Below, in pieces: positions 6,573-60,632 of a DNA stretch of 64,000 nt. Both the position numbers and the translations under genes were made by a program. Source of the DNA: Candidatus Magasanikiibacteriota bacterium (GTDB taxonomy: Bacteria > Patescibacteriota > Patescibacteriia > Magasanikbacterales > UBA922); assembly GCA_003510435.1 (NCBI GenBank), contig DOMK01000009.1, forward strand, positions 24,675 to 88,674, in the 5' to 3' direction. Below the pieces are notes generated by a model. It saw only the letters and a list, made by a program, of their open reading frames with translations. It was not told where the DNA came from and ran no database searches. Position 1 is the stretch's first letter. Each line of letters begins with the position of its first letter.

Positions 6573-6665
6573 AACACAAATCACCCAAATTATACAAATT
6601 AACACAAATACCATTTGCGAAGATTTGAGGTAATTTGGGAAATTTGAGTCCTATTTAATTTACAT

Positions 6666-9904: not shown

Positions 9905-10017
9905 AAAAATTTTAGATAGAACTCAAATTATACAAATCACCTCAAATTTTCGCAAATTATATCTGCCACGGTGCAGGCAGATTTGTATAAATTTGTCTGA
10001 TTTGTATAATTTGAGTT

Positions 10018-13833: not shown

Positions 13834-13906
13834 CTAACTTCGCATTATTGAATTGCAATATTAGAGGTGATGAAAGGGATTCCTCTTTCGCTTCGCTCAC
13901 TCGGAA

Positions 13907-14608
13907 TTACGCGATAATTGTCCCATTAAATTTTTCTCCTTTTAATACTTTTTCCACCTCTTTTAAATTATTACCATCCAAGACCACAACTCTTAGACCA
14001 GCTTTTTCTGCTATACGACTGGCTTTAGGATCAAAAGGAGCATTCGCACCTGGCTTCCAAATATTTCCTATAATATTTTTTCTAAAATTCTTCCAACTAA
14101 TTTTTTCTATCTTCTCGGCATCTTTGTATTTTTTAGGATCTTTTGTATAAACATGAGAAATATTTGAAAGATTAATAACTTCTCCTGCACCATAAGCCTT
14201 TGTCAACTCCACTGCATCATAATCACTTGAACTGTTTGGCTTCCAACCTGATGCAACAATAATAGATTTAGTAGTTTTAACTTTTTCTTTAGGATAACTT
14301 ACTACTTCCTCATAGGCGTAATCACCGAAAAGAAGACGAACAAATTGGGCATTAAAAATTGTAGTATAAATTCCAAGCCAGTCTAAATTTTCATTGCTAG
14401 TTTTTACTGTTTTTGCCAAAGCTTCTTGATAAGCTCTACAAGTCGCTCCCCCACCAATGACTAAAATAAATTTCTCGCCTTTTTTTACACGCGCTAAAAT
14501 TAATTCTCTAAACTTTTTTAAAAAATTAATATCAAATCCGGTTTTTGGAATTATAATTGAACCACCGACAGAGATAATTTTGTATTTAGAACTTTTCTTA
14601 CTAGACAT
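13907..14608 (-). CDS. pyrH: archaeal-type uridylate (UMP) kinase, amino acid kinase family
   Basis: Collinear similarity to the Pyrococcus-type PyrH fold; VIGGGATCRAYQEA. 233 aa. Confidence 0.65.
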   Translation of the reverse strand: MSSKKSSKYKIISVGGSIIIPKTGFDINFLKKFRELILARVKKGEKFILVIGGGATCRAYQEALAKTVKTSNENLDWLGIYTTIFNAQFVRLLFGDYAYEEVVSYPKEKVKTTKSIIVASGWKPNSSSDYDAVELTKAYGAGEVINLSNISHVYTKDPKKYKDAEKIEKISWKNFRKNIIGNIWKPGANAPFDPKASRIAEKAGLRVVVLDGNNLKEVEKVLKGEKFNGTIIA

Positions 14609-14731
14609 ATTTTTATATAAAATAATTTTTGTTTTTTTTAATAAAAATGATTAGTGATAAGTGATAAAACTATTTTTAATTTTCCTTATCATTTATCACT
14701 TATCATTTAATTTTCTAAACAAATTAGATCT

Positions 14732-16026: not shown

Positions 16027-16111
16027 ATAGAACTCAAATTACCAAAATATCCAAAATACACCAAAATAGATTTGCGAAAATTTGAGGTAATTTGGGTAAT
16101 TTGTGTTCTAT
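16027..16111. repeat. 85-bp repeat family B (ATAGAACTCAAATTACCAAAAT...TTTGCGAAAATTTGAGGTAATTTG...GTTCTAT). Other copies are at 18334-18418 (about 95% identical), 6569-6654 and 9915-10023.
   Basis: B3 and B4 are directly repeated 2.3 kb apart. The ends are mutually complementary and so can form a hairpin. Confidence 0.8.
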
Positions 16112-16761
16112 TTTGATACTAAAACAATTTGATTAACCCAAGTTTCACCTTCTTTAACAAACTTATTCTCTTCTATACTAAAAGCCAAAGTCTCCAAATC
16201 CTCTATCACCTGTTCTGGTCGATGATAATATGATTCAATCTCCACAAGGCCTTGTTCAGTTTTTATTTCTGGCGCTTTTCTTTGATTTATATTTGTTAAT
16301 AAAAATTTTCCGCCTTGCCCCGAGCCAAGTCGAGGGGCTGGTTTTAAAACACGATAAACTTCATCAAAAAATAAGTTCAAATCTTTCAAATGCACAATCA
16401 AAAAAGTCGCAATCACAATATCAAAACTATTATCTTCAAAGGGGAGATCCTCAGCTTCACCAATCACTACTTTTATTTTTTGATTTTTACTTTTTAATTT
16501 ATTCAGCATCTCCTCTGATACATCCAAAGCAGTTACTTTCGCTCCAGCCTTTGCCAATCGTAAAGACAAGCGCCCATTTCCTGCACCCACATCCAAAATT
16601 TCCCTATCCTTAACTTGCCCAAGCAATGGCACAACCTGATACTGTTCAAAACTATCCCAATATTTTTCTTTTTTGGCATAATAATCGGCTGTGAGATTAT
16701 AGCCATCTTTTGAATTTAAAATTTTTACTTTCTGCATATTTTTCCTTTCACCTGACTCCAA
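16108..16761 (-). CDS. class I SAM-dependent methyltransferase (Methyltransf_11-like)
   Basis: ILDVGAGNGRL and FDIVIATFLIVHL motifs. Confidence 0.7.
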   Translation of the reverse strand: MESGERKNMQKVKILNSKDGYNLTADYYAKKEKYWDSFEQYQVVPLLGQVKDREILDVGAGNGRLSLRLAKAGAKVTALDVSEEMLNKLKSKNQKIKVVIGEAEDLPFEDNSFDIVIATFLIVHLKDLNLFFDEVYRVLKPAPRLGSGQGGKFLLTNINQRKAPEIKTEQGLVEIESYYHRPEQVIEDLETLAFSIEENKFVKEGETWVNQIVLVSK

Positions 16762-16785: not shown

Positions 16786-18330
16786 TTATTGGTGTGAGGA
16801 GTTTGGCCTTTTATAAATAAAATAAATCAATAAAATATACATAATCACCATCCCCCACCACGGCACTGTTAAATCCACAGCAGACCATTTCAAACTGGCA
16901 AAAAATTCCACGATTTTTATAATATATTGCAATCCCACCCAACCAATCCAAGCAATTATTTCACCTAAAGGCATAAATACAAAACTTATCAAAACCGCAA
17001 AAAAACCTAACATCATTATAGTCGGGATAATCCATAATATCAAGATATTAACAATCGGCGCCACAATTGATAACCGGCCAAACTGAAATAATATTAATGG
17101 CAATGTGGCAGTAATCGCTGACAAAGTAGAAATTAATGATTCTCGAATACCCAAAAATTCTGGTACTCTGTCAAACCAATTTCTAATCACGGGCGTAATA
17201 TATACTAGACCTAGAGTGGAAATAAAAGAAAGTTGAAAGCCAGCGTCCCAAAGTAAAATAAACGGATTTTGCAATGACATCACAACCGCGGTCAAAACCA
17301 AAACATTACCCACTTGCGAAGTCCTACCCACTTGTTTGGCAAGGAGTACTATAATGCCCATAATTCCAGCCCGCACCACCGATGCACTCGCTCCCGTAAA
17401 AATAACAAATAAAATAATTCCACCTGTAATTAACCAAAAAGCTTTTTTGCGCGGAATATAAAGATTAACACAAATCGCAATTAAAATTGACGCGATCAAA
17501 CTAATGTTGTAACCAGAAATAGCTACTATATGCGTCACGCCAGTTCGACTAAACATCTCATTCAATTCTCCCAATCCACCACGATAACCGTAGAGCAAAC
17601 CCGCCATAAAGCTCGCACTCGGTTCGTGCCATAGTTTATTTATTCTATCAGCGATTACATTTTTAATATCAAAAATCCCAGCCAAAATTTTACTTCCTTC
17701 TTTACCCTGAGCTAATCCGCCAGCTGGCGGAGAAGCCGAAGGGTTTATCTTTGCATTTTCACAAATTGTAAACACACCGTACCGTGCCAAATACATATCA
17801 TAACGAAAATCATTAATAATTTCTGGTTTTTGTAAATCACATTTCAATTCTAATTTATCACCATATTTATATCTGGGATAAAGTAAAGTCTTTACATAAA
17901 CATTTTTTCCAACCAAATTATCTTGTATTTTGTTACGTGTATTTTGCCTGCCCACAACGCTCTCGCTTGCGAGGCGGACGGGTATCTTGATTATATATCT
18001 CACTCCATCCATTCTCACGTCTGGCTCAGCTGACACATAACCAACGACAGTTTGTCCACCTAAATTAATTTCTGATAAAGGAAACGCTATTAAATATCTC
18101 GCTACACCCAACACAAAAACAGCACAACAGAACAACACCATTCTCATTTTTTTATTTTTCCAATATATAATCAAAAAAGATATTAAAACAAATAATGCAA
18201 AAAACAAATATACAAAATCTATTTTCCATTCCAAAAGAGAGATACTAACAATTCCCAACAAAAAAGAAAAACAAAACGTCAGGAACGTTTTGCTTTTTGA
18301 ATTTATTATTGTATTAAGCATACCCTCCAA
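16786..18330 (-). CDS. comEC: ComEC/Rec2 competence membrane channel, N-terminal plus competence domain part
   Basis: 514 aa polytopic protein; DUF4131-like N-terminus followed by a competence domain. Confidence 0.75.
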   Translation of the reverse strand: MEGMLNTIINSKSKTFLTFCFSFLLGIVSISLLEWKIDFVYLFFALFVLISFLIIYWKNKKMRMVLFCCAVFVLGVARYLIAFPLSEINLGGQTVVGYVSAEPDVRMDGVRYIIKIPVRLASESVVGRQNTRNKIQDNLVGKNVYVKTLLYPRYKYGDKLELKCDLQKPEIINDFRYDMYLARYGVFTICENAKINPSASPPAGGLAQGKEGSKILAGIFDIKNVIADRINKLWHEPSASFMAGLLYGYRGGLGELNEMFSRTGVTHIVAISGYNISLIASILIAICVNLYIPRKKAFWLITGGIILFVIFTGASASVVRAGIMGIIVLLAKQVGRTSQVGNVLVLTAVVMSLQNPFILLWDAGFQLSFISTLGLVYITPVIRNWFDRVPEFLGIRESLISTLSAITATLPLILFQFGRLSIVAPIVNILILWIIPTIMMLGFFAVLISFVFMPLGEIIAWIGWVGLQYIIKIVEFFASLKWSAVDLTVPWWGMVIMYILLIYFIYKRPNSSHQ

Positions 18331-18417
18331 ATGATAGAACTCAAATTACCAAAATATCCAAAATACACCAAAATAGATTTGCGAAAATTTGAGGCAATTT
18401 GTAAAATTTGTGTTCTA

Positions 18418-21400
18418 TTAAATAACTATCGACACCAATCTCCCTTTTACATAAATAACTTTTTTCGGTTCCTTACCTTCTAACCATTTCTGTACTTTGT
18501 CTGATGCAAGTGCTAATTTTTTTATTTCTTCTTCACTAATATCCACTGGCACTTGAAATTCATCACGTACTTTACCATTTACTTGTGCCACTACAGTAAT
18601 AACGTCATCAATAATTAATTTTGGATCATATTCTGACCATTCACTCAAAGCAATGCTGTCTTTATTTCCCAAATCAGCCCATAATTCTTCACAAAGATGT
18701 GGGGCGAAGGGAGAGAGTAATTTAAGGAGTAAGGAATAAGGAGTAAGGAATAATTGTTCCTCTTTACTCATCTCATTTACTAAAATCATCAGTTGTGCAA
18801 CCGCGGTATTAAAATGCATCGCTTCAATATCTTCACTTACTTTTTTTATAGTCTGATGCAACAAAGTATCAATTTTCGTATTTCGTAATTTCGTATCTTT
18901 CGTAGTTCGTATCCCCAAATTCCACACCTTCTCCAAAAATCTCCGCACTCCAACCACTCCATTCGTATCCCACGCCACTGCTTGGTCAAATGGCCCCATA
19001 AACATTATATAAGTCCTGAAAGCATCAGTGCCAAATTTTTCTACCATCTCATCTGGGTTTATTACATTCCCTCTGCTCTTACTCATTTTTTCACCATCAG
19101 AAGCCAAAATCATGCCATGTGAAGTACGTTTTTTATATGGTTCACTCGTTGGCACCAAACCAATATCAAATAAAAATTCATTCCAAAATCTAGAATACAA
19201 TAAATGCAAAACTGTGTGCTCCATTCCCCCATTATACCAATCAACTGGATTCCAATAATCCATTTTTTCTCTATCCCAAATATATTCACCATTTTTTTCT
19301 TTCATCATGGTATAAGCTAAAAAATACCAAGAACTACCAGCCCAATTTGGCATAGTATCAGTTTCTCGTCTCGCTTCACCACCGCAAACCGGACAAATGG
19401 TATTTACCCACTCATCAATATGCGCCAATGGAGATTCGCCATTGTCAGTTGGTTCATATTTTGCTACTTTTGGTAATTCAAGTGGTAGAGATGATTCTGG
19501 AAGTGGAATCCAGCCAGTATTTTCTAGGAGTTGCAATACCATTGGCTCTTCAGATGCTGTAAAATGTACATCTTCAGGTCTTGCTAAAACTAAAGTTCCA
19601 TCTAATTTCTTTTCCAAATCTCTTAAATCCTTTTCAAATATTGTTTTAAAATCAATATCTCCTAAAATTATAAATTCATTACTTAATTTTTTTATCTTTT
19701 CAAAATCAAAATTCCAATCACAACTTTTTTCTACCACAGGACGTATCTTATCTGGAAATTTTGCTGTCACAACTGGATCAAGAAGTAAAACTTTAGCCAC
19801 TTTTTTATTTAATTTTTCTAATAATTTATATACAACAACTCCACCTAAACTATGGCCAACCAAAATTGTATTTTCATCAATTTTGGTATTTTTTAAAATA
19901 TATTCAACTTGTTCATCAATATTTGGTTCATTGGTATTTGGTAAATCGGGACAAAACACAGTATTTCCCTGCTTTTCTAAAATTTGTTTCATCCACGGCT
20001 TCCAACCTTCACCTGAATAGGACATAAATCCATGAACAAAAACATAATGATGTTTTTTATTTTTACAATTTTCACAATAAACCAATGGGATTGGTTCACC
20101 CCAATAACGCTGACGAGAAAATACCCAGTCGCGAAGTTTGTAATTAACTGCCCGTTTACCTAAATTATTTTTTACAATATATTCTATAATATCTTGTCTT
20201 ACTTCATCCCACTTTCTACCTTTAAAATCAATTGGCTCTTCTAAAATACCATTCTGTTCACGATAAAATATTTCTGTACTACGCACTTTTTCTGCCAATT
20301 CTTTGTCCTCAGGGAACAATACTGGGTGTAATGGCAAATCATACATTTTAGCAAACTTATAATCGCGTTCATCATGAACTGAACAACCAACAATGCCAGT
20401 GCCATAATCCATTAGAGCAAAACTTGCTACCCAAATTGGTAAATTGCGCCCAATACCCAAATAATTTTCTGAATAACGGCCAATAAAAATACCTTCCATA
20501 TCACTATCTATATCAAACTTATCACCAGCTTTTTTCTTTTTTATTTTTTCCACAAATTCCATTACTTCTTTTTCATGTTCAGTGCCTTTTACCATTTCAT
20601 AAACATAAGGATGTTCTGGAGCAATAATTACAAAAGTTTGAGCCATAAAAGTTTGCGGAATAGAATCATAAACTTCAAATTCCAAATTCATGTCTTTTAT
20701 TTTGTGTTTAAAATTAATACCTTCGGATCGTCCAATCCAATTCTGCTGTTGAATTTTTGCTTGAGGAATATAATCAACAGTTTCCAAACCTTGTAATAAC
20801 TTATCAGCATATTTGGTAATTGAAAGCATCCACTGTTCTTTATTTCTTTTTTCTACTGGACCACCACAACGTTCGCATTTACCATCTACAACTTCCTCAT
20901 TAGCCAAACCAATTTTACAGGAAATACACCAATTGATTGGCATAGCTTTTTTATAAGCCAAACCGTGTTTGAATAATTGTAAAAATATCCACTGGGTCCA
21001 TTTGTAATATTTTGGATCAGTAGTATCTACTGCCCTATCCCAAGCAAAACTATAACCAAGCATTTTTAATTGACGCGTAAAATTGGCAATATTTTCGGCT
21101 GTCACTTCGGCTGGCGGTCGACCAGTTTTAATGGCAAAATTTTCTGTCGGCAGTCCAAAGGCATCAAAACCAATCGGGAACAAAACATTTTTTCCTTGCA
21201 TTCTTTTTTTACGACAAATCACATCCATGGCTGTAAATGGTCGTGGATGACCAACATGAAGACCAGCTCCTGATGGATAAGGAAATTCTATCAGACCATA
21301 AAATTTTTCCCTGCCCTGAGTCTTTACCGAAGGGCTTTCCTCCGTAACTTCAAAAATTTTATTGTCTTCCCAATATTTTTGCCATTTTTTCTCGCCTTGT

Positions 21401-21477
21401 TCTTCTAAAAATTCCTGATATGTTTTCATATAATTATACTTTTTTATAATAAAAGCTATCGGCACTCCCCTTGCCAC
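18418..21477 (-). CDS. leuS: leucyl-tRNA synthetase carrying an inserted YdeN/RBBP9-family serine hydrolase domain (about 190 aa). The likely start is MKTYQEF at 21429.
   Basis: HVGHP (HIGH) and KMSKS motifs; a CP1 region (IIAPEHP, GTGIVGCSVHDERD); the anticodon-binding end motif LLSPFAPHLCEELW. The insert lies between YCENC and CPVCGG and contains VFVHGF and ENTILVGHSLGG. Confidence 0.95.
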   Translation of the reverse strand: MARGVPIAFIIKKYNYMKTYQEFLEEQGEKKWQKYWEDNKIFEVTEESPSVKTQGREKFYGLIEFPYPSGAGLHVGHPRPFTAMDVICRKKRMQGKNVLFPIGFDAFGLPTENFAIKTGRPPAEVTAENIANFTRQLKMLGYSFAWDRAVDTTDPKYYKWTQWIFLQLFKHGLAYKKAMPINWCISCKIGLANEEVVDGKCERCGGPVEKRNKEQWMLSITKYADKLLQGLETVDYIPQAKIQQQNWIGRSEGINFKHKIKDMNLEFEVYDSIPQTFMAQTFVIIAPEHPYVYEMVKGTEHEKEVMEFVEKIKKKKAGDKFDIDSDMEGIFIGRYSENYLGIGRNLPIWVASFALMDYGTGIVGCSVHDERDYKFAKMYDLPLHPVLFPEDKELAEKVRSTEIFYREQNGILEEPIDFKGRKWDEVRQDIIEYIVKNNLGKRAVNYKLRDWVFSRQRYWGEPIPLVYCENCKNKKHHYVFVHGFMSYSGEGWKPWMKQILEKQGNTVFCPDLPNTNEPNIDEQVEYILKNTKIDENTILVGHSLGGVVVYKLLEKLNKKVAKVLLLDPVVTAKFPDKIRPVVEKSCDWNFDFEKIKKLSNEFIILGDIDFKTIFEKDLRDLEKKLDGTLVLARPEDVHFTASEEPMVLQLLENTGWIPLPESSLPLELPKVAKYEPTDNGESPLAHIDEWVNTICPVCGGEARRETDTMPNWAGSSWYFLAYTMMKEKNGEYIWDREKMDYWNPVDWYNGGMEHTVLHLLYSRFWNEFLFDIGLVPTSEPYKKRTSHGMILASDGEKMSKSRGNVINPDEMVEKFGTDAFRTYIMFMGPFDQAVAWDTNGVVGVRRFLEKVWNLGIRTTKDTKLRNTKIDTLLHQTIKKVSEDIEAMHFNTAVAQLMILVNEMSKEEQLFLTPYSLLLKLLSPFAPHLCEELWADLGNKDSIALSEWSEYDPKLIIDDVITVVAQVNGKVRDEFQVPVDISEEEIKKLALASDKVQKWLEGKEPKKVIYVKGRLVSIVI

Positions 21478-22300: not shown

Positions 22301-22318
22301 GTTTATTTTGCAAGTTTA

Positions 22319-22347
22319 TTGACCTAACTTAGAGTACATAGTAAAAT
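22319..22347 (+). promoter_or_regulatory. sigma70-like promoter TTGACC-17-TAAAAT
   Basis: Hexamers at 22319-22324 and 22342-22347. Preceded by a TTTTGCAAGTTTAT direct repeat. Confidence 0.5.
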
Positions 22348-22380
22348 TAACAGTAGGACAACTCTCACCTGGAGGCCAAG

Positions 22381-22569
22381 ATGGCCCATGTTCTGGATCT
22401 TCGCGGCTCAACCATGCCACTGGCCGAACAGATCAAGACTGGGATTGCTCTCATCATGGTGGTGCCTTTCATCACAGCCTTCCTGATGAAGAGCAAATTT
22501 AGGGAGCTAAAGGCTAGGTGGTGGGACACGTTCGTCTCAGATGTCACCACTATAACAGGTGACGAATGA
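22381..22569 (+). CDS. hypothetical 62-aa membrane peptide with GC-rich codon usage and a GGAGG SD
   Basis: MAHVLDLRGSTMPLAEQIKTGIALIMVVPFITAFLMKSKF...; GGAGG lies 7 nt upstream; the local GC is atypical. Confidence 0.35.
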   Translation: MAHVLDLRGSTMPLAEQIKTGIALIMVVPFITAFLMKSKFRELKARWWDTFVSDVTTITGDE

Positions 22570-22675
22570 CAGACAAAAGGGGGTTCACGTGCGACTTCTT
22601 TGCCAACCGGTAAGAAAGGGGGTGGAAGTCGCTCAGTTGGTTTAGCCCATCAAAAGGTGGATTAAACCAAATAAA

Positions 22676-22702
22676 GAATTCCGAATTTAACGGAATTTTT
22701 TA
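22676..22702 (+). terminator. rho-independent terminator (GAATTCCG / CGGAATT stem followed by a T-run)
   Basis: Hairpin plus TTTTTT. Confidence 0.55.
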
Positions 22703-22703
22703 T

Positions 22704-22732
22704 TTGACAAAATATATTTATATAATTACAAT
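22704..22732 (+). promoter_or_regulatory. sigma70 consensus-like promoter TTGACA-17-TACAAT
   Basis: Hexamers at 22704-22709 and 22727-22732. Confidence 0.5.
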
Positions 22733-22960
22733 ACTTACTCAACTTCACCTAACTCCGCTGTCAGTGCTGGTTTGGAGTCAGGTGTTGTTTGTGGGCATCG
22801 TGACATGTCGACAAAACCATGGAACCGGGGACTATTAGTAGTGACAAGCGAAAGTAGCGAAATCGGGGCAAACCCCCGTTCCCCATCTGGGTGCCAAACC
22901 TAGAATTACCGTATTCCGACGGTAATGTTTCCCAAAAGTGGTTTGACACACCCTTAATTT

Positions 22961-22991
22961 GTCATGAGGTCGGCAGTTCAAGTCTGCCTAG
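22961..22991 (+). other. tRNA-Pro 3'-half-like fragment (variable loop, T-arm, acceptor 3' strand)
   Basis: GAGGTCGGCAGTTCAAGTCTGCCTAGGCCCA matches the 3' portion of the tRNA-Pro at 45303-45375 in 29 of 31 positions. No 5' half was found. Confidence 0.6.
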
Positions 22992-23057
22992 GCCCATGGA
23001 CTGGGTGGTCACGATGAAGGGGGTGTGGGCGACGACAGCTAGCCCCTCCTCTAAAAC

Positions 23058-23090
23058 AAACCCTGTACCGTTCTGGTACAGGGTTTTATT
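23058..23090 (+). terminator. rho-independent terminator
   Basis: AAACCCTGTACC-GTTCT-GGTACAGGGTTT followed by TTTT. Confidence 0.7.
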
Positions 23091-23112
23091 TCCGTGTAAT
23101 CCTTTTTTCCGT

Positions 23113-25683: not shown

Positions 25684-26091
25684 TTAAATGTGTTTCTCCA
25701 ACATTCCTTTCAATTTCTCTTTTGGCACACCACCAACCATCTTATCTACTACCTGTCCGCCTTTAAAAACCAAAAAAGTCGGGATACTCATGACTTGAAA
25801 CTGTCCAGCGACCAATTGATTTTCATCCACATTCAATTTAGCAATTTTTACTTTTGCGATATCTAATTCACTAGCTAGTTCTTCTATAATTGGACCCATC
25901 ATTTGACAAGGACCACACCATGGTGCCCAAAAATCTACTAAAACTGGCACGTTTGATTGCAAAACCTCCACCTCAAAGTTTGCATCTGTAAGATTTAATT
26001 CTGACATATATAAATTTAAAGATTTAAAGATTGAATAATTTAAAGATTTTTTGACAAGAAGTATTTTAACATTTTTGAAAATTACCAGCAA
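25684..26091 (-). CDS. trxA: thioredoxin. The probable start is MSELNLT near 26010.
   Basis: WAPWCGPCQM active site. Confidence 0.9.
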   Translation of the reverse strand: MLVIFKNVKILLVKKSLNYSIFKSLNLYMSELNLTDANFEVEVLQSNVPVLVDFWAPWCGPCQMMGPIIEELASELDIAKVKIAKLNVDENQLVAGQFQVMSIPTFLVFKGGQVVDKMVGGVPKEKLKGMLEKHI

Positions 26092-29018: not shown

Positions 29019-29036
29019 AATTACTGATTACTGATA

Positions 29037-29180
29037 ATCCGGATTTACGGATTCACAGATATTAAATAAAAATTTAAAAAAGATGAAATTTAACATCTGT
29101 GAGTAAGATTATAGCTAAATAAAAGAAAAAAGTCAATTTTATCCGTAAATCCGGATTATCCGTATATCCGTAATTTTAAA
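29037..29180. repeat. nested inverted repeat, family D (ATAATCCGGATTTACGGAT ... ATCCGTAAATCCGGATTAT). A related unit lies in frame in truB (37001-37037), and a degenerate copy is at 45515-45550.
   Basis: 19-bp perfect inverted arms about 100 bp apart, with an inner TCACAGAT/ATCTGTGA pair. Confidence 0.7.
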
Positions 29181-29186
29181 AGTCAA

Positions 29187-33232: not shown

Positions 33233-33235
33233 ATT

Positions 33236-33365
33236 CGTAATCCCGAGCGCAGCGAGGGATCCCTTTTTGACGCACGGAAATGTTTATTAAATTAAATTTT
33301 ATTTAAAGCAATTTTTAATGAATTGAAAAGGGATTCCTCACTCACTATCGTTCATTCGGAATGAC
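33236..33365. repeat. palindromic intergenic repeat family A (arms of about 38 bp, CGTAATCCCGAGCGCAGCGAGGGATCCCTTT, with an AT-rich loop of about 50 bp). Other copies are at 13789-13913 and 35961-36088, with a half copy at 24349-24382.
   Basis: Direct comparison of the four loci; each full copy forms a long imperfect hairpin. Confidence 0.8.
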
Positions 33366-35802: not shown

Positions 35803-36867
35803 TCAATCTTTTTTAGCTAAAATCACATACCCTTGCGCCTCCACCCACTTCCCTACCAAATACATTTCTACCAACCCATACAACTCACACAAAGCTGTAG
35901 AATAGGGATGTAAATATTTTTTTATTTTATATAATATTTTGTTTATAAATTTTAATAACATAATCCCGAACCCAGACGAAAGGGGGAGAGATCCCTTTTT
36001 GGTGAGCTGATTATTAACATTAATTATTACATCGTTTGATGCATTGGAAAGGGATCCCTCGTCGCCCTGTCGGGCTCGCTCGGGATGCCAAAAAAATTCA
36101 TCCGGATGCACCAAAAAACTTGCCCAAAAAGCATTGTACATTTTTTCTATATAAAAACCAGTATTTGCTAACAAACTTTTCAATTCTGATTTTGAATAAA
36201 GTGAAATATGAAACTCGGCATGTGGATCAATATTCAGTCCGCGCTTCATTAAATAATTTCTTACATAAGCATGACGACCAAGTTTTGATTCACTAAACAT
36301 GGCCAATACGCCACCAAATTTTAAAACGCGATTTAATTCTTTTAGCCAGGCTGGTACATTGGCTACATGCCCCAAAACATCTGATGTGTAGATCGCATCA
36401 AAATAATTATTTTCAAAAGGTAAGTGTTCACCATCATACCACTCCACTTCGGCATGCACACCATTTTGTTTAACTTTTTCTTTGGCCAAATCAATTTGTA
36501 ATTTTATTACATCTATTCCATATACTTCTACTTGCCGACCAAACATTTTTTTCAAATCAACCAAACTCGCACCAGTACCACAACCCACATCCAAAATTCT
36601 AATAGTTTCTACTTGCCAGCCAAGCTCATGAGTCTGGGGATTGTCTGCCAATCTTTGCTTAATATATTTCTTAATATACCGATACAAAAACCACTTCTTA
36701 GGATAAAAAAGTAATTTTGCCCAATCTTTTAATTCTACACGCTCACCCAAAAATACCGGGTTTGTATCCCAGATTTCTACACCGTCGTCTTGTGTTTTAC
36801 CCCAACCAAGAGTATTATTATTTTGCATATTGTTTATATTGTACCATGGACAAGATACAAAATACAT
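35803..36867 (-). CDS. class I SAM-dependent methyltransferase whose C-terminal tail of about 95 aa is read through a palindromic repeat element (35961-36088)
   Basis: ILDVGCGTGAS motif I. The sequence after ...FLVHPDEFF is encoded by the repeat. Confidence 0.6.
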   Translation of the reverse strand: MYFVSCPWYNINNMQNNNTLGWGKTQDDGVEIWDTNPVFLGERVELKDWAKLLFYPKKWFLYRYIKKYIKQRLADNPQTHELGWQVETIRILDVGCGTGASLVDLKKMFGRQVEVYGIDVIKLQIDLAKEKVKQNGVHAEVEWYDGEHLPFENNYFDAIYTSDVLGHVANVPAWLKELNRVLKFGGVLAMFSESKLGRHAYVRNYLMKRGLNIDPHAEFHISLYSKSELKSLLANTGFYIEKMYNAFWASFLVHPDEFFWHPERARQGDEGSLSNASNDVIINVNNQLTKKGSLPLSSGFGIMLLKFINKILYKIKKYLHPYSTALCELYGLVEMYLVGKWVEAQGYVILAKKD

Positions 36868-36924
36868 GGAACAATATACACAGTTATAATAAATTGTATT
36901 TTGTTACGTGTATTTTGTATGTTT

Positions 36925-37695
36925 ATTTTAATCAACAAACCAAAAGACTGGACCAGTTTTGATGTGGTTGGCTATATTCGCAAGATCGCTCGCCAATCAC
37001 TCAAATCCGTAGATCCGGATAATCAGAAAATCCGTAGTTTAAAAGTCGGTCATGCTGGCACTTTAGATCCATTTGCCACTGGTCTTCTGATTGTTGGGGT
37101 TGGTCGTGAAGCTACCAAACGATTAGATGAATTTAAAAATTTGCCAAAAACTTATGTTGCGACTATAAGACTTGGCGCAGTGAGTGATACGTTTGATTCG
37201 ACAGGTGTAATTACGAACTACAAAAAATCATTGTCAAATTGTTACATGGTTACATTGCTAAAAAAACTATTCAAAAAAAATAACAATGTAACAATTCAAC
37301 AATGTAACAATGAATTCAACAAAATAGATTCTGTATTAATTCAAAACGTTTTAAATAAATTTATAGGGAAAATTAAACAAACACCACCAATGTACTCTGC
37401 GAAAAAAATCAATGGCCAAAAACTTTATGATCTCGCGCGTAAAGGAATAACTATTAGACGAAAGAAAAACAAAATTGAAATCTACAATATCAAACTAATA
37501 GAATATAATTATCCAATATTAAAAATCTCAGTCAACTGTTCCGCTGGCACCTATATTCGCACTCTGGCCAATGATATTGGTGAAAAACTCAGGGTCGGTG
37601 CATATTGTGAAGAACTGGAAAGAACTAAAATTGGTGAATATTCATTGGATGAGGCGAAAAGCATTGCAGATATAAAAAATTTACAATTCACCTAA
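36925..37695 (+). CDS. truB: tRNA pseudouridine(55) synthase. The ORF track begins at 36790; the conserved N-terminus starts near MFILINKPKDW.
   Basis: NKPKDWTSFDVV and KVGHAGTLDPFATG motifs. It contains a 15-aa repeat-derived insert SLKSVDPDNQKIRSL. Confidence 0.85.
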   Translation: MLINKPKDWTSFDVVGYIRKIARQSLKSVDPDNQKIRSLKVGHAGTLDPFATGLLIVGVGREATKRLDEFKNLPKTYVATIRLGAVSDTFDSTGVITNYKKSLSNCYMVTLLKKLFKKNNNVTIQQCNNEFNKIDSVLIQNVLNKFIGKIKQTPPMYSAKKINGQKLYDLARKGITIRRKKNKIEIYNIKLIEYNYPILKISVNCSAGTYIRTLANDIGEKLRVGAYCEELERTKIGEYSLDEAKSIADIKNLQFT

Positions 37696-37962
37696 TAAAA
37701 TATCAAATTCTAATCTAAAATAAATTATTCAAAATTTAACATTCGTCATTTTATTAGAAATTAGGTTAATTAGAAATTAGAAATTTTTTTGATTGTCATG
37801 GACAATCAAAAACTCCCCTCTACTCTAATTCTTTTTTAAAAAAGAACCAAAGCAGATTCGGGGAGTTTTTGTTTCCTCCTTTTTGGTTGTTGATTCCCTC
37901 CTCCGCGCCACACTGGCATGTTCCGATATCATCCAAGCCCTCCTAAAGAGCTGTTGGTTGTT

Positions 37963-38481
37963 TCAGCTTCCCTCCTCCGACTGAGGTAGAAGTTCGAAGA
38001 AGGGTTGTTCGGACGGCCACGTCCAGCAGAACGGACCGCTGGGCTCTTCGTCGGGCCCGTAGCCCGTGATGAATTGCCCACACTCCTGTTGATCAGTGTT
38101 ACATTCATGGTTGAATGAAATGTCCGGCATCTGGTAGTAGACTCGCCAGAACGCCTCCTGCTTGTAGTCGCGGTCACTGCACCCGGCCGTCATCTCGTCG
38201 ACCCAGAACATGATTGTGGGGTTCTTGTCATGAGAACAACATACTATTTGTCCTCTATCACCCACTCCCATGCAGTTGTGCAGGTCGCGAATACCCGGGA
38301 ACTCATGCCCGAAGTACGTCTCCACGACGTACCCGCCACTGATGGCGATCGGCACCGGCGTGCTGTCGCCCCACTTCACCGGGAGGCTGTTGTCGACCAG
38401 GATGGCCAGCGTCGCCAGGATGGCGAAACCGATGACCAACTTGCTGACGTACTTGCCCCGAAAGTCGACCTTGTTCAGCAT
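37963..38481 (-). CDS. hypothetical Cys/Trp-rich membrane-anchored or secreted protein (172 aa) in a high-GC island
   Basis: AAGGAGGG SD 9 nt upstream; N-terminal signal anchor; 7 Cys; GC3-rich codons unlike the host. Confidence 0.5.
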   Translation of the reverse strand: MLNKVDFRGKYVSKLVIGFAILATLAILVDNSLPVKWGDSTPVPIAISGGYVVETYFGHEFPGIRDLHNCMGVGDRGQIVCCSHDKNPTIMFWVDEMTAGCSDRDYKQEAFWRVYYQMPDISFNHECNTDQQECGQFITGYGPDEEPSGPFCWTWPSEQPFFELLPQSEEGS

Positions 38482-38505
38482 GATGAGACCCTCCTTCTGT
38501 GAGTT

Positions 38506-38598
38506 CTACCACCACCCCATACCCTTGGTGATAATCGCAGCCAACACAGCCGCGATCACGAAAAACGGGGTCCATCGCCCCTCCATGAAACGACTCAT
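38506..38598 (-). CDS. hypothetical 30-aa hydrophobic peptide MSRFMEGRWTPFFVIAAVLAAIITKGMGWW in the high-GC island (not in ORF track)
   Basis: GGGGGAGGGGG SD directly upstream; in an operon with the 172-aa ORF. Confidence 0.4.
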   Translation of the reverse strand: MSRFMEGRWTPFFVIAAVLAAIITKGMGWW

Positions 38599-38788
38599 CG
38601 CCCCCTCCCCCAAGGTTGGACAAATTTGAATTTACACTACCAAAAAATTATGAGAAAGTCAACCAAACATCCAATACCCTGACACCAATAACCTCACCCC
38701 AACAAATACGGAATTGGGTTATTAGAGTCAGGTACAAGGAACGAGGGGTGTGGACAACTTTCCCCTTTCTCTCCATATAAAGAGAACA

Positions 38789-40611: not shown

Positions 40612-40808
40612 AGAATTAGAATATTATACACAATAAAATCCTTCGGCGATAGCTGGGGGATTTTTATTTTAGTATTTGGGAGTTGGGGCTAGATGCGAGA
40701 AAAAATTTCTCGCATCCCGTCCTTATTCCTTACTCCTATTATTTTAATCAACATAACTATAATTGTAAAATTTAAAAAAAATTTGTCCACAGACAAAAAT
40801 TTGCTCTA

Positions 40809-41477: not shown

Positions 41478-41484
41478 CAAAAAA

Positions 41485-41520
41485 CAGTAGAGGCGTGCCA
41501 CGGCACGCCTCTACTGTTTT
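41485..41520. terminator. bidirectional rho-independent terminator (14-bp perfect stem)
   Basis: CAGTAGAGGCGTGCC ... GGCACGCCTCTACTG, followed by TTTT on the plus strand and TTTTTT on the minus strand. Confidence 0.75.
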
Positions 41521-45186: not shown

Positions 45187-45302
45187 AAATATAAATGCTT
45201 GAAAAGCCTAAAACGCCAAAAAGGCTTGAAAGGCCTGTGGATAATTAATACCTATATTTTAGCATAATAAAAACCAAGCGACAATGCTTGATTTTTGATG
45301 TG

Positions 45303-45375
45303 TCGGGCTAGGCAGACTTGAACTGCCGACCTCGTCGTCCCGAACGACGCGCGCTACCAACTGCGCTATAGCCCG
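45303..45375 (-). tRNA. tRNA-Pro (anticodon CGG)
   Basis: Reverse complement CGGGCTATAGCGCAGTTGGTAGCGCGCGTCGTTCGGGACGACGAGGTCGGCAGTTCAAGTCTGCCTAGCCCGA folds as a cloverleaf with anticodon loop TTCGGGA. Confidence 0.8.
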
Positions 45376-48996: not shown

Positions 48997-49062
48997 ATTT
49001 ATAAAAATTAATCATTAAATCTTTTAATCTTAATTCCTTATTCCCCGCCTGCGCAGGCAGGC

Positions 49063-49404
49063 TTATTCCTTATTCCTTACTCCTTCCCCGACCGCTTCTC
49101 TCCTCACCACCTTAGTAATATCTCTACCAACAGATTCAAGCTTGATATGAAGTTTAAATAATAAATAAAATATAATTACCAAGGCAACATAAATAACAAA
49201 ATCTGTACCGCGACCAATCCCTAAATAATTTGCCAGAATCGTAGTACTATTTGGCCAGAGCACAGCCACAATTGCTAAAAGCCAAAATATTAGCCAAAAA
49301 AACAAACCCTTTGGACCAAGCAAACCTTCTTGTTTACGCTTAATAACGTTCACTATGGCAAACAAAACAAACATAGTAAACAAAATTTGAAATAAAATTA
49401 ACAT
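49063..49404 (-). CDS. small 3-TM membrane protein (DUF2304-like?) adjacent to a GT2. The last ~7 codons are encoded by a repeat element.
   Basis: 113 aa. The C-terminal ...GEGVRNKE is read from GGAGTAAGGAATAAGG repeat DNA. Confidence 0.4.
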   Translation of the reverse strand: MLILFQILFTMFVLFAIVNVIKRKQEGLLGPKGLFFWLIFWLLAIVAVLWPNSTTILANYLGIGRGTDFVIYVALVIIFYLLFKLHIKLESVGRDITKVVRREAVGEGVRNKE

Positions 49405-49473
49405 AATATTTAAGGAATAAGGATTAAGGAATAAAGAATAAAATTTTATCCTTATTCCTTACTCCTTTTTCCT

Positions 49474-50130
49474 TTACTTTACAAACTTACCAAACACTAA
49501 ATCTCTTGCCACCTTAAAACCACCACCCAAACCCTGACCAAACTTATGGTATACCACTTTCACCGGAAATTCAACGTATTGTAAACCCAATTTTTTCGCC
49601 TTGGCTGGAATCTCAGTGGCATGGGCCATCCTGTCTTGTTCAATTGTAATTTGTTCTAAAGCTTTTTTATTCAATATTCTAAATCCATTGTGAGTATCTT
49701 CCAAATCTACTCCACAAATTTTATTAAAAATTTTAGCCACAGGAAAAAGAATATATTTTTTAAACCATGGTAATTGGGTCCGATTATCCAAAAATCTAGA
49801 ACCAAACAATATATCCACTCCACTGTCTTTTAACTTTTTCAAAGCTGGTTTGATATCTTCCACACAAAATTGATTATCTCCATCAAAATGTAAAACATAA
49901 TCAGCCCCAATTTGCAAAGCATAATCATGACCGGTTTGCAAAGCTGCACCTTGTCCACGATTTATTTTGTGTTGTAAAACAATCGCTCCACTTGTCAAAG
50001 CTTGTTTGTACGTATTGTCACACGAACAATCATCCACCACAATCACTTTATCCACATGAGCAAAAAGGCTCTGGACCACAGAGCCGATAGTTTTTTCTTC
50101 ATTGTAAGCAGGGACAACAGCCACGAACAT
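49474..50130 (-). CDS. glycosyltransferase family 2 (dolichyl-phosphate sugar synthase-like)
   Basis: VVPAYNEEKTI ... VVDDCSCDNT. Confidence 0.8.
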   Translation of the reverse strand: MFVAVVPAYNEEKTIGSVVQSLFAHVDKVIVVDDCSCDNTYKQALTSGAIVLQHKINRGQGAALQTGHDYALQIGADYVLHFDGDNQFCVEDIKPALKKLKDSGVDILFGSRFLDNRTQLPWFKKYILFPVAKIFNKICGVDLEDTHNGFRILNKKALEQITIEQDRMAHATEIPAKAKKLGLQYVEFPVKVVYHKFGQGLGGGFKVARDLVFGKFVK

Positions 50131-56212: not shown

Positions 56213-56305
56213 CACCGAACCACTTTACCACCTGACCACACAATCAAACAAAAAGAGCCGAAGGCTCTTTTTGTTATGTGATAAAGTGCTTAAGTGTTTA
56301 GGTGG

Positions 56306-57242: not shown

Positions 57243-58673
57243 TTATTCCTTATTCCTTATTCCTTTCAAAAATGGAGAACCAACGGCAATAACATCAAAC
57301 CCGGCTTGTTGTAAATCAATATAATTATGTTGCAACATCCTCCGTCCATCCATTATAAGTGGTCTGTTTGGTAATTGCAAGATCAATTCCCCTAAGCCCC
57401 TAAATTGTGGCCAATCTGTGGCAATGATAATTACATCCACACCATTAGCTCCCCCTATAGGAGGGGTGGTAGGGATGGCCATCACACATTCTATTTCACT
57501 TTTACAATATACAAACTGATTTGATTCTGGAAAAACTTGTTTAAAAAAGTCCATCCCAGCCGGATCATAAATCTGGACAGTCTTAACTTGTTTTTCTTTC
57601 AAAAAATTACCAATCTCAATACTAGATGAATTGCGAATATCATTTGTATCACGTTTAAAAGCCACTCCGAGCAAAGCCACAGTTTTATCTGTCCAATCAA
57701 TTTGGGCTTCTTTTTCTGCTCGACCAAGAAAATTTTCTAATTGACGTTTATTGGCCAAATAAGTTTCATTTACCAGTATAGCATTAGTTCCCGTCGTCTG
57801 TAATTGATGAGATAATGATCTGGCATCTTTTATAAAACAACTACCTCCAGCGTAAAGACTATCATATAGTCCCCAGGAACCAATTCTCGGATCAGTGGTT
57901 AAAATCTTGCGTAAATTTTCAAATTGCAAATCAGAAAAAGTTTCACAAGTCCGACCGATCACATCAAAGCAAATAGCTAATTTGTTAAATAAATAAAAAT
58001 TGGCTAATAGTTTACCAGCGGCAGCTTCTTTTGGATTCACTTCTACATATTCGACATTGGGAGAATTGTAAAATCTCTGATAAACTTGTCTCATTATTAT
58101 AAAATCTTTTTCAGCCCAAGCGCCCACCACAATTCTATCTGGTTTTAATGAGCCAGAAATCGCTTTACCTTCAACTAAAAATTCTGGATTAGAAACTATA
58201 CCATAATTTTTTACCCCAGCTTTATCCATTATTTCTTGCGTATGATTTACCATATCAATCGGCACTGTACTCTTATTAACAATAATGATATATTTTTCTT
58301 GCTTACTTTGATTGCGTTTTAATAAACTGCATGCTAATTTTTCGGCCGCGTCAAAATAATAAGTTAAATTGCTCTCCCCTGTCTCGCCAATTTCCGGTGT
58401 AGGCAGACACATAAAAATAGCATCACAATCATCTAAAAATTTTTCTACCAAATTATAATCAAGCGTAAACTCGATTCTTTCTTTATTTCTAATTAATAAA
58501 TCTCCTAAGCCATTTTCAAACAAACAAGATTGTATGGTATCACGATCCCCGGAAGATAATAATTTTATTTTTTCTTCACTAATATCATACACCAAAGTAT
58601 TGTGTCCACTATCAGCTGAGACAGCGGCACTACATGCTCCAACAAAACCGGCTCCTATATAAAGTAACTTCAT
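57243..58673 (-). CDS. UDP-glucose/GDP-mannose 6-dehydrogenase family (Ugd-like)
   Basis: N-terminal IGAGFVGA and GGSCFIKDA catalytic Cys region. Confidence 0.8.
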   Translation of the reverse strand: MKLLYIGAGFVGACSAAVSADSGHNTLVYDISEEKIKLLSSGDRDTIQSCLFENGLGDLLIRNKERIEFTLDYNLVEKFLDDCDAIFMCLPTPEIGETGESNLTYYFDAAEKLACSLLKRNQSKQEKYIIIVNKSTVPIDMVNHTQEIMDKAGVKNYGIVSNPEFLVEGKAISGSLKPDRIVVGAWAEKDFIIMRQVYQRFYNSPNVEYVEVNPKEAAAGKLLANFYLFNKLAICFDVIGRTCETFSDLQFENLRKILTTDPRIGSWGLYDSLYAGGSCFIKDARSLSHQLQTTGTNAILVNETYLANKRQLENFLGRAEKEAQIDWTDKTVALLGVAFKRDTNDIRNSSSIEIGNFLKEKQVKTVQIYDPAGMDFFKQVFPESNQFVYCKSEIECVMAIPTTPPIGGANGVDVIIIATDWPQFRGLGELILQLPNRPLIMDGRRMLQHNYIDLQQAGFDVIAVGSPFLKGIRNKE

Positions 58674-59429: not shown

Positions 59430-60632
59430 TTATAATTCATTATAAAGTTTAAAATAACTAGACAGAAATCTTTCTTTTGTATAATTAGCCAAAATATATT
59501 CTCTAGCATCAATTCCTTTATCTTTTAAAATTTCTTCATTATTTAATAAATCTACCATATTTTTAGCTAACTGTCCACTATCAACAGGCACTAATCTACC
59601 TACTTTTTCATTAATTAAATCTCTTAAAGCTAAAATATCAAAACCCAAAACTGGCAAACCACAAGACAAAGCTTCTAATACTGTTAAAGGCATAGTTTCA
59701 ACCAAAGAAGTAAAACATAAAACATCTGATAAAGCTAAATAGTCAGATAATATATGTTTATCTTTTATATAACCCACCAATCGGACATTTTCTTTTGCAT
59801 AAAAAACTCCTTTACCTAAACCTAAAAATAAATAATCATTTTTATCTAAAATTTTAATTAAATCAATAATATAGTTCATTCCTTTATTTTTGTCTTTAAA
59901 ATCACCAATATTAAACAAAATAATTTTTTTGTCTATGGGCAAATTATATTTTACACGTAAAGCTGTTCTGTTACTTGTTGGTTGAAATAAATTAGTATCT
60001 ACACCGTTAGTAATTGTTCTTATTTCAAACTTGTTTAAAAATGATTTTCTTATATTATTGGTCAACCACTGGGCAGGTGAAATAATTATTGGACTCCAAT
60101 CTAAACTAAAAATCTTTTTCTTTCTCTTCAAATTATACTTAGCTAAAATTGGCCAATAATTTTTTGGATAAGAATATTTATTTTTACATTTTCCCTCTAA
60201 AGTCTGACAGTGTTCACAACCCATACTATGTGCTGACAACCAAGTAATTGCCCATTCATCATGCAATGTCCAAATTACTCTAATTTTTTCTTTAGCCAAA
60301 AATTTTATAAAAAAAGAAAAATTTAGATAATAACCATGCAGATTGTGCAAATGAATCAAATCAAATTTTTCTCTTTTTATAAAATTAATTAACTTGCGAG
60401 TAGAAAAAAAATTACCAAAGCCTTCCAAGCCAAAAAAACGTACTAAACAAATATGAAATAAAGTTTCTAACCAATTACCAAAACAAAATACTCTTGGCAA
60501 ATTATTTTTTTTACCTCGACCAAAAGCGAAATAAAATTCACAATTATTATTTGTAGAAAAAAACAAATCCTGAGCAATGGTTGCTGCCCCACCCTGGTCA
60601 AAAGTAGTATTAATTATTAATACTTTTTTCAT
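59430..60632 (-). CDS. glycosyltransferase family 4 (GT-B)
   Basis: C-terminal TMPLTVLEALSCGLPVL motif. Confidence 0.7.
   Translation of the reverse strand: MKKVLIINTTFDQGGAATIAQDLFFSTNNNCEFYFAFGRGKKNNLPRVFCFGNWLETLFHICLVRFFGLEGFGNFFSTRKLINFIKREKFDLIHLHNLHGYYLNFSFFIKFLAKEKIRVIWTLHDEWAITWLSAHSMGCEHCQTLEGKCKNKYSYPKNYWPILAKYNLKRKKKIFSLDWSPIIISPAQWLTNNIRKSFLNKFEIRTITNGVDTNLFQPTSNRTALRVKYNLPIDKKIILFNIGDFKDKNKGMNYIIDLIKILDKNDYLFLGLGKGVFYAKENVRLVGYIKDKHILSDYLALSDVLCFTSLVETMPLTVLEALSCGLPVLGFDILALRDLINEKVGRLVPVDSGQLAKNMVDLLNNEEILKDKGIDAREYILANYTKERFLSSYFKLYNEL

Follow-up and report, generated by a model that had tools for sequence, protein, structure and literature searches.

The Rickettsia palindromic elements (RPEs) described by Ogata et al. 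(2000, 2002, as summarised in PMC10969869 and PMC3733652) are families of repeats that occur between genes and also, in frame, within unrelated housekeeping genes of a reduced genome. Repetitive extragenic palindromes (REPs) carrying GTAG or CGTC tags are hairpins that lie downstream of genes, overlap their ends and provide the stop codon, and some of them fall wholly within open reading frames (ORFs) (Di Nocera et al. 2013, PMC3733652). Transposable elements of the miniature inverted-repeat kind (MITEs) lying in frame, and elements of the enterobacterial repetitive intergenic consensus (ERIC) type that contain ORFs, are small non-coding repeats which make in-frame fusions when they land in genes (Delihas 2007, cited in PMC10969869). 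In this paper we analyse 64 kb of DNA from Candidatus Magasanikbacteria, a lineage of the candidate phyla radiation (CPR). We call this whole stretch, on contig DOMK01000009.1, the window, and we number all positions from its first nucleotide. Its truB gene, which encodes tRNA pseudouridine-55 synthase, is host to two in-frame repeat segments, and in at least a dozen places in the window families of intergenic repeats lie inside conserved genes.

We think it probable that these repeats were copied into tolerant loops of conserved proteins, in a manner that is RPE-like in its effect, and that the short patches among them were probably templated, not transposed. Three outcomes can be distinguished: insertions into loops (twice in truB, twice in Elp3, and in a methyltransferase, ComEC and TsaE); patches of equal or near-equal length that replace ordinary codons (LeuS, Elp3 and RarA); and repeats at gene ends, which form the last 6-8 codons and the stop. 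The initial annotation of this DNA proposed that intergenic repeat families occur in frame inside conserved genes, and we find this to be so, with matches beyond chance, in the case of three families (A, C and D) and two kinds of array (AAAGATTT and TCAAGCCTT). It further regarded the copies as insertions. Alignment with orthologs bears this out for both truB sites, the methyltransferase, ComEC, Elp3 and TsaE, but not for LeuS or for an ACCACC-type patch in Elp3.

The window has a G+C content of about 34%, carries nearly all of its genes on the minus strand, and contains roughly 7 kb of spacers in total. Its proteins are identical to entries HBU068xx of a Candidatus Magasanikbacteria metagenome-assembled genome (MAG), to which HBU06865-HBU06916 belong. 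Since the same proteins are on record from several sources and contigs, we reject an assembly artefact. Our repeat-family searches, shuffles and screens are confined to the window unless other loci are named. The sister genome, L167 (sister MAG GCA_049287025.1), is recognised by synteny and gene identity (88% for the amino acids of the methyltransferase, 80-90% for the DNA of genes); L168 and L169 belong to the same species as L167, and their TruB sequence is identical where it overlaps. For TruB we compare 46 full-length Magasanikbacteria orthologs, retrieved as intact proteins, out of the hundreds that are on record. The baseline of minimal loops is provided by CPR TruBs from a metagenome scan with the TruB alignment, which are mostly distant (at most 55% identity) among the matches listed.

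The first truB segment, site 1, is a one-armed array of short units (Table 1), within which positions 37001-37037 read tcAAATCCGTAGATCCGGATAATCAGAAAATCCGTAG. Its peptide, SLKSVDPDNQKIRSL, sits in frame between WTSFDVV and KVGHAGTLDP, that is, in the loop joining helix alpha-1 to the catalytic strand KVGHAGTLDP, and the translation of truB includes SVDPDNQK. The only other family D copies in the window are the two arms of an intergenic hairpin (29029-29052 and 29141-29164, 96% complementary). The 20-mer ATCCGTAGATCCGGATAATC recurs twice when no more than 2 mismatches are allowed, at 29033-29052 (-) and 29141-29160 (+), both of which fall in these arms, and the expected number of matches is 0 (none in 100 shuffles). 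A blastn comparison of site 1 with the hairpin gives 84% identity over 44 nt (E 6e-6), and the local alignment gives 37/43 matches, with TTTAAAAGTC included. Positions 37005-37047 reproduce, as DNA, both arms of the hairpin.

The resemblance extends to the order of the units and to their edge. The order of unit variants ATCCGTAA-ATCCGGAT-TATC is common to site 1 and the intergenic arms; the right arm of the 29029-29164 hairpin runs on as TTTTAAAAGTC, likewise in truB; and the intergenic arm continues with TTTAAAAGTC, which in truB forms the L-K-V codons, so that the junction itself is shared. When the peptide of site 1 is left unchanged and its codons are redrawn from among the synonyms in proportion to genome usage, none of 5000 random sequences reaches the observed similarity. 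Thus, we conclude that the likeness of site 1 to the hairpin lies at the level of DNA.

From the W of WTSFD to the P of GTLDP there are 41 residues in the window, compared with 27-28 in minimal TruBs of Magasanikbacteria and other CPR bacteria. Site 1 therefore adds about 13 amino acids over minimal TruBs, and the TruB of Thermotoga is likewise short. The suggestion that a repeat unit supplies extra residues between TSFDVV and KVGHAGTLDP is thus upheld by the DNA match, by the resampling and by the length comparison alike. The TruBs nearest to that of the window in our search, P0002 (L081) and P0040 (L082), are 69-70% identical to it, and at site 1 they carry units of the same type (ATCCGTAA ATCTGTAA ATCAGGAT TATCCGGG TATCCGTAA). 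The sister L167 has a different filler there, QAGLSAEAKK, of a type found also in P0013, P0017 and P0022. Because L167 differs in this way while L081 and L082 keep D-type units, the site-1 loop is, as far as the orthologs indicate, a place of repeated replacement and not of one insertion.

The second segment, site 2, is a larger case, which the initial annotation did not notice. It is an in-frame hairpin, the second-longest inverted repeat in the window, with arms that are 81% complementary and a significant tendency to fold (folding z-score -3.55). It adds about 30 amino acids, residues 103-132 of the protein being unaligned to solved TruBs. The window has this hairpin in common with L081 and L083. 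L167 keeps only the left arm, the right arm having been replaced by D-like units and a nested G+C hairpin. In L164-L166 there are only one-armed NAACAATN arrays, and in L165 the same units also occur in intergenic elements. Across the 46 Magasanikbacteria TruBs the length of site 1 ranges over 27-81 residues and that of site 2 over 44-137, the lower values being those of minimal CPR TruBs (27-28 and about 44). Many of the fillers are recognisable translated repeats, sometimes nested; for example, EIATSAEANRLPRNDK, HPEFISGS..LKQVQ.DK and VIPSEVE..RFSRND. On the evidence of these alignments, both sites are hot spots for insertions and deletions.

The TruB fold is, according to structural modelling, kept despite the inserts. 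All residues that are invariant in the 46-sequence alignment are present in the TruB of the window, although this is so by construction. An AlphaFold2 (AF2) model of the protein has a confidence (pLDDT) of 91 and a TM score of 0.75 to TruB structures; the inserts appear in it as helical appendages with pLDDT 70-87, site 2 being modelled as a helix-loop-helix, and the conserved motifs are intact.

Table 1. Genes, coding repeat copies and intergenic hairpins of the window, with their positions.
Feature	Position	Strand	Remarks
truB, tRNA pseudouridine-55 synthase (258 aa, without PUA domain)	36919-37695	+	Pfam TruB_N 6e-48, TruB_C_2; identical to HBU06897.1
truB site 1, one-armed array of about four 8-nt units ATCCGTAG/ATCCGGAT/AATCAGAA/AATCCGTAG	36997-37047	+	encodes SLKSVDPDNQKIRSL
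truB site 2, in-frame hairpin, 36-nt arms of 8-nt ATTGTTAC / GTAACAAT units, 20-nt loop	37225-37316	+	encodes SLSNCYMVTLLKKLFKKNNNVTIQQCNNEF
Family D intergenic hairpin, between P-type ATPase and IF-2 genes	29029-29184		inverted-repeat search; folding z -7.9
Hairpin in methyltransferase-truB divergent spacer	36852-36923		inverted-repeat search; folding z -5.6
Class I S-adenosylmethionine (SAM) methyltransferase	35803-36828	-	long annotation to 36867 has 13 extra codons
Family A inverted-pair element, about 125 nt, in frame inside methyltransferase	35965-36090	-	encodes WHPERARQGDEGSL...KKGSLPLSSGFG
Family C heptamer array (TTCCTTA/CTCCTTA x4) inside leuS	18720-18753	-	encodes LFLTPYSLL; E 5e-7 to family C arrays
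comEC in-frame insertion	17923-17995	-	encodes PVRLASESVVGRQNTRNK; 17923-17946 identical to 36894-36917 (24/24, E 3e-8); remainder a small G+C-rich segment
Family A single unit in Elp3	2704-2749	+	NALKSDSSVASLLRNL; about 15 aa extra; 86% to 13873-13908; residues 186-200 unmatched in Elp3 structure 6iaz
ACCACC-type 8-nt array in Elp3	3383-3416	+	LPPNHLTTLPPK; length unchanged compared with solved Elp3
9-nt array TCAAGCCTT x5 in Elp3	3541-3587	+	about 8-9 aa extra; resembles intergenic array 45193-45233 (85% over 41 nt, E 7e-7)
AAAGATTT 8-nt array in TsaE	6857-6909	+	EIKRFKDLKIKR; 7 aa extra; family also at 25996-26048, 49008-49031
Family C patch in RarA/MgsA	11812-11836	-	NKEKGVRSK; +2 aa compared with E. 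coli RarA; 96% over 23 nt
DUF2304 gene, last 7 codons and stop in family C array	49063-49085	-	GEGVRNKE, stop
UDP-glucose dehydrogenase gene, last 7 codons and stop in family C array	57243-57266	-	KGIRNKE, stop
Transketolase gene, last 8 codons and stop in family A unit	33338-33362	-	SFRMNDSE, stop
Family A copy upstream of PLD-family gene	13791-13838 (extension 13732-13838)	-	94% over 34 nt to 33234-33266, E 2e-8
Spacer hairpins replaced in L167 (examples)	292-375, 14643-14709, 40690-40750, 49411-49475, 56213-56305

The methyltransferase gene that diverges from truB had been taken to read about 95 codons through a family A element to its stop. We reject this description. The last 40 or so residues of the protein (KKYLHPYSTALCELYGL...AKK) are conserved in L081, L082, L164 and L167, and the element is therefore an internal insertion and not a tail. 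The copy matches family A at E 1e-4, and GSLPLSSGFGIMLLK is among the peptides it would yield. It is present in L167 and absent from L081, L082 and L164; accordingly, the distance from HPDE to HPYSTA is 72 residues in the window and in L167, compared with 38-39 in L082 and L164. The occupants of this loop differ: family A in L167 as in the window, a 28-nt GTAG..CTAC hairpin, in frame and read VETRHASSL, in L081, and nothing in L082 and L164. Between the window and L167, the ratio of nonsynonymous to synonymous changes is 10:4 in the insert and 13:45 in the body of the gene, with no frameshift or stop in either genome, which points to a tolerated passenger and not to a peptide under selection. 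Conservation is higher at the inverted ends of the insert than in the middle, and the copy folds weakly (z -1.8). Judged from its sequence, this element of about 125 nt looks like a classical insertion of the MITE or RPE type.

The array in leuS, which the initial annotation listed among the insertions, is different in kind. The family C array is real and lies beyond the reach of codon chance: none of 100000 codon-resampled sequences reproduces its perfect 14-nt periodicity, and it uses rare codons (TTC 6%, TCC 7%, CTC 4%). There is no indel, however, 51 of 61 sequences sharing the length of the window's LeuS, so the array is not an insertion. Orthologs have similar residues at the patch (e.g. 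LPLTTYSLLLKLLSPF in P0147), and these residues look ancestral. Formally, such shared residues are the very observation that had been named in advance as a sign of coincidental codon composition. The patch forms no significant hairpin (z -1.4). The comparison thus indicates an equal-length overwrite at the level of DNA. The 90% cluster of this LeuS contains only alternative starts from the same or a near-identical genome, and the best other LeuS is 73% identical.

The leuS gene (18418-21429, minus strand) has a further feature. At about 19657-20061 the body of the synthetase contains an inserted alpha/beta-hydrolase (serine hydrolase) domain (Pfam Abhydrolase_1, 4e-10, at about residues 473-607 of the 1019-aa ORF). 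The best matches to the C-terminal part are mostly proteins of 220-450 aa, some of them on very long contigs, so that split genes may be among them. In other Magasanikbacteria leuS is longer still (about 1160 aa in L029), and the LeuS of L001 carries an in-frame EIAASPSAPRNDK segment.

In comEC, a degenerate palindrome had been suspected within the coding sequence. We find a lineage-specific in-frame insertion of about 16 aa, absent from the ComEC of L004, L001 and L035, which shares 24 of 24 nucleotides with the spacer upstream of truB; it is not a palindrome, since the segment forms no significant hairpin (z -0.65). The shared 24-mer lies in the right arm of the hairpin in the methyltransferase-truB spacer. 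This arm also overlaps the start codon of truB; the left one overlaps the 13 codons that only the long annotation of the methyltransferase includes. The sister L167 has a different hairpin in this spacer. At 17680-17720 comEC has a second small extra segment, SPPAGGLAQ, and in L001 a long insertion resembling family A (EIATSVAARLPPRND) occurs at this place. Comparison with L001 thus indicates that the same loops are struck in different genomes.

Further cases, in Elp3, TsaE and RarA, come from a screen of the spacers against coding DNA (Table 1). The family A unit in Elp3 is read in another frame than the methyltransferase copy, giving LKSDSSVASLLRN and not KKGSLPLSSGFG. Gene tails that include the stop codon arise because a heptamer array in the TAAGGAA orientation must meet an in-frame TAA within three units; the TTCCTTA orientation, as in LeuS, has no stop in any frame. 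One such tail, that of the small membrane protein encoded by the DUF2304 gene, had been recognised at the outset as 7 codons of family C, and it does lie inside a family C array.

Repeat read-through inflates annotated N-termini. Public calls of start codons differ where repeats lie upstream: 354 or 341 aa for the methyltransferase (36829-36867), 399 or 365 aa for the PLD-family protein (13732-13833), and 511 or 453 aa for ComEC. In the PLD case, the 34-codon extension (399 aa) is found in one annotation only, and the 94%-identical P0123 of another MAG is annotated with 365 aa, from M35. The extension had been described as an N-terminus formed by read-through of family A; judging by P0123 it is probably not translated, the start having been mis-called, and the likely start is M35 at 13731. 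Elsewhere, in a GT4 glycosyltransferase gene (59430-60632, minus strand), a 24-nt inverted repeat (96% complementary) at 60301-60386 brackets DLIHLHNLHGYY; this may be chance in A+T-rich sequence.

The spacers themselves are rich in repeats. Many of them hold hairpins whose arms consist of imperfect tandem units of 7-9 nt, often around a terminator-like stem. The family A unit has the form ATYCCGAGCG..GAGGRATCCCTTT and often occurs as inverted pairs; small G+C-rich hairpins are also found. The spacers of L167 contain hairpins and terminators entirely unlike those of the window (Table 1) while their flanks are 90-99% identical, and replaced patches within other genes of the same 12 kb are rare. 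Relatives carry hairpins of the same style built from other units, and exact searches for the family D and family C cores among 163 loci from relatives found nothing relevant. A scan of the whole window at Rfam gathering thresholds gave only two tRNAs, and no match for the repeat segments.

Several other features of the window deserve mention. An 86-nt element with inverted ends is present in two direct copies, 16027-16112 and 18334-18419 (95% identical), which bracket a methyltransferase gene and comEC, and it has weaker relatives at 6570-6655 and 9907-10030. The family C units contain AAGGAG, which resembles a Shine-Dalgarno sequence. After tRNA-Met, at 41481-41520, there is a REP-like, GTAG..CTAC-tagged hairpin (GTAGAGGCG..CGCCTCTAC), where L167 has an ordinary terminator. 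Two islands, 37642-38787 and 22301-23112, are richer in G+C (2-kb windows reaching 0.40-0.44, compared with about 0.34) and have ORFs without Pfam matches, and the former is absent from L167. Positions 22966-22994 repeat 29 nt of the tRNA-Pro gene (45302-45375), like the attachment-site scar of an integrated element.

We propose the following account. Repeat DNA would be copied between loci at the level of DNA, and selection would retain a copy only if it kept the frame, brought in no stop and lay in a loop that tolerates it. As a consequence such loops would turn into hot spots, occupied by different repeats in sister lineages; the truB and methyltransferase loops do hold different repeats in related genomes. 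The inserted peptides would be largely neutral passengers. For the short one-armed patches, templated copying (by short-patch gene conversion or by template switching seeded by microhomology such as TTTAAAAGTC) would be likelier than cut-and-paste transposition. As read from the aligned loci, the patches of equal length and the exchange of repeats between sister genomes point to copying by some mechanism that is not transposition.

This account can be put in a stronger form, which we regard as possible but doubtful. In Magasanikbacteria, copying that is templated and guided by microhomology, and not transposition, might continually rewrite tolerant loops of conserved genes and terminator flanks from the genome's own short-unit hairpin repeats, with the result that sister genomes differ in their loop 'cassettes' and that some codons are overwritten at equal length. 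If true, templated copying would constitute a distinct mutational regime shaping CPR proteomes.

Alternatively, all of the coding copies could be non-autonomous mobile elements of the MITE, REP or RPE type, served by a transposase elsewhere in the genome, in which case the one-armed and equal-length cases would be decayed or partly deleted insertions. The families do have several copies; family A has inverted ends, with a full copy in the methyltransferase; the 86-nt copies are 95% identical; the L081 methyltransferase contains in frame a REP-like GTAG..CTAC hairpin, of which there is another at 41481-41520; and ORFs that contain REPs or RPEs have been described (PMC3733652, PMC10969869). We nevertheless find no target-site duplications at the methyltransferase, truB or intergenic replacement junctions when these are compared with orthologs or the sister genome, a comparison limited by divergence, and no transposase, including the REP-associated tyrosine transposase (RAYT), among the window ORFs scanned with Pfam. 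The patches in LeuS and the ACCACC patch in Elp3 are unchanged in length, so that an insertion would need an exactly compensating deletion. Moreover, truB site 1 represents part of one arm only, as does the comEC 24-mer, and L167 had one arm of an existing in-frame hairpin replaced. We therefore consider mobile elements unlikely as the source of all copies.

The arrays might instead have grown in place by replication slippage of short units, independently at each locus, their likeness to intergenic repeats being convergence. Array periods of 7-9 nt, the one-armed NAACAATN arrays at truB site 2 in L164-L166 and the 9-nt in-frame array in Elp3 would all fit. Slippage does not, however, predict that site 1 should repeat the unit-variant order of the intergenic arms (ATCCGTAA-ATCCGGAT-TATC), or that comEC and the truB spacer should share exactly a non-periodic 24-mer. 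In addition, the frame survives the gain of 7- or 8-nt units only if they come in threes, and the AAAGATTT and TCAAGCCTT arrays, like families A, C and D, already have donor-like copies between genes. As a general explanation, slippage is thus very improbable.

A further alternative holds that the in-frame hairpins are not passengers, but are RNA or DNA structures selected for a regulatory or stabilising role and housed in coding sequence. Three species retain 82% of the pairing in the hairpin of site 2, which folds significantly; the better conservation of the inverted ends of the methyltransferase insert points the same way. But there is no significant covariation, the sister L167 has lost one arm, the copies at site 1, LeuS and comEC do not fold, and no Rfam family matches, so that we give this idea very little weight. 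Finally, mere coincidence of codon composition in an A+T-rich genome, whereby ancestral residues happen to resemble repeat units, can appeal to the similar residues of LeuS orthologs and to the many TruBs with xP[ED]xK at site 1, but the resampling results (0/100000 for LeuS, 0/5000 for truB) already refute it for both genes, the rare codons of LeuS and the 0 expected matches of the truB 20-mer also speak against it, and we judge it to be almost certainly wrong.

Several observations weigh against the view that repeats are copied into tolerant loops. Site 1 has neither a hairpin (z -0.59) nor terminal repeats, and the word 'element' may overstate what it is. Natural variation affects the loop as well: no gap is needed to align human TRUB1 over site 1, where it is as long as the TruB of the window, and it follows that the long loop between alpha-1 and the beta strand arose more than once. 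The D-type units at site 1 in L081 and L082 suggest that the segment may be old and not a recent insertion. Family D has only one intergenic locus in the window, and copying may have run from truB to spacer or from spacer to truB. At site 2, covariation is not significant, with 1 compensatory pair among 3 sequences, which is not above controls. The retrieval of orthologs as intact proteins biases the sample towards in-frame events, and translation of the inserts is inferred from reading frames that are intact in several species. Likewise, templated copying is deduced from the equal-length patches and from the lack of target duplications and of a transposase in 64 kb; no donor-recipient pair has been caught.

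CPR genomes are tiny, and non-essential DNA in their core genes is therefore unexpected. Our results would extend a phenomenon of the Rickettsia type to a second, unrelated lineage with reduced genomes, in which the tRNA-modification enzymes TruB, TsaE and Elp3 are affected along with LeuS, ComEC and others. They would also account for much of the length variation of CPR proteins and for some of their mis-annotation, such as false N-termini, 'hypothetical' low-complexity segments and split Pfam matches. The affected loops, moreover, constitute natural maps of insertion-tolerant sites in essential enzymes, which may be of use in protein engineering. A full-text search of the literature returned no description of in-frame repeats in CPR bacteria or Patescibacteria.

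It remains to place the repeats of the window among the systems described at the beginning. The initial annotation likened them to RPEs, and in effect the likeness is sound: repeats lie in frame in conserved genes, the host proteins in both cases keep their conserved motifs and predicted fold, and no associated transposase is evident. The likeness fails in palindromy and in the use of a single frame. RPEs are palindromes of about 100-150 bp, whereas many of the present copies are short (24-45 nt), one-armed and composed of 7-9-nt units; the copies at truB site 1 (about 45 nt), comEC and LeuS do not fold, and only truB site 2 and, weakly, the methyltransferase copy do so. The coding copies of one RPE family are generally described as using one reading frame and orientation and as encoding a conserved peptide. 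Here, in contrast, family A is read as KKGSLPLSSGFG or as LKSDSSVASLLRN, and family C is used in both orientations, in LeuS, RarA and the gene tails. Nor are RPEs known to offer a parallel for copies that replace codons at unchanged length, or for a loop that holds different repeats in sister genomes. RPEs proper are further defined by the RPE-1 to RPE-10 consensus sequences, a CGTC tag and a Rickettsia host; the host here differs, being a CPR bacterium, and the present families are seen only in this window and not, by exact searches, in the loci of relatives.

Like REPs, the repeats of the window extend over the ends of genes and provide stop codons, and a GTAG..CTAC hairpin occurs both between genes and, in L081, in frame in the methyltransferase. 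REPs are imperfect palindromes of 20-40 nt tagged by GTAG or CGTC; the copies in truB, LeuS and comEC differ from them in lacking either tag and in not forming hairpins, and no RAYT (IS200/IS605-like) gene is present among the window ORFs scanned with Pfam. With MITEs and ERIC-type elements they share the property of being small repeats that land in genes and produce in-frame fusions. MITEs have terminal inverted repeats and a target duplication; of the present families only A has inverted ends.

Template-switch (quasipalindrome) mutagenesis and short-patch gene conversion, as in Ripley's model and Lovett's work on E. coli, produce clustered changes of equal length, make or perfect inverted repeats, and need only microhomology. 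We infer that such events fit the patches in LeuS, Elp3 and RarA and the replacement of an arm in L167. To our knowledge, these processes are known as rare mutational events and not as a genome-wide spread of repeat families into genes. Borg elements reportedly contain perfect tandem repeats, with units divisible by three when they lie in ORFs (the work of Schoelmerich and colleagues, 2023). The window resembles them in having tandem repeats between genes and in ORFs, which make fast-evolving, variable segments of proteins; its units, unlike theirs, are imperfect, measure 7, 8 or 9 nt, and are often paired as the arms of a hairpin. What sets the window apart from the RPE and REP systems is the occurrence of one-armed copies made of short units, the overwriting of codons at equal length, and the turnover of repeats between sister genomes.

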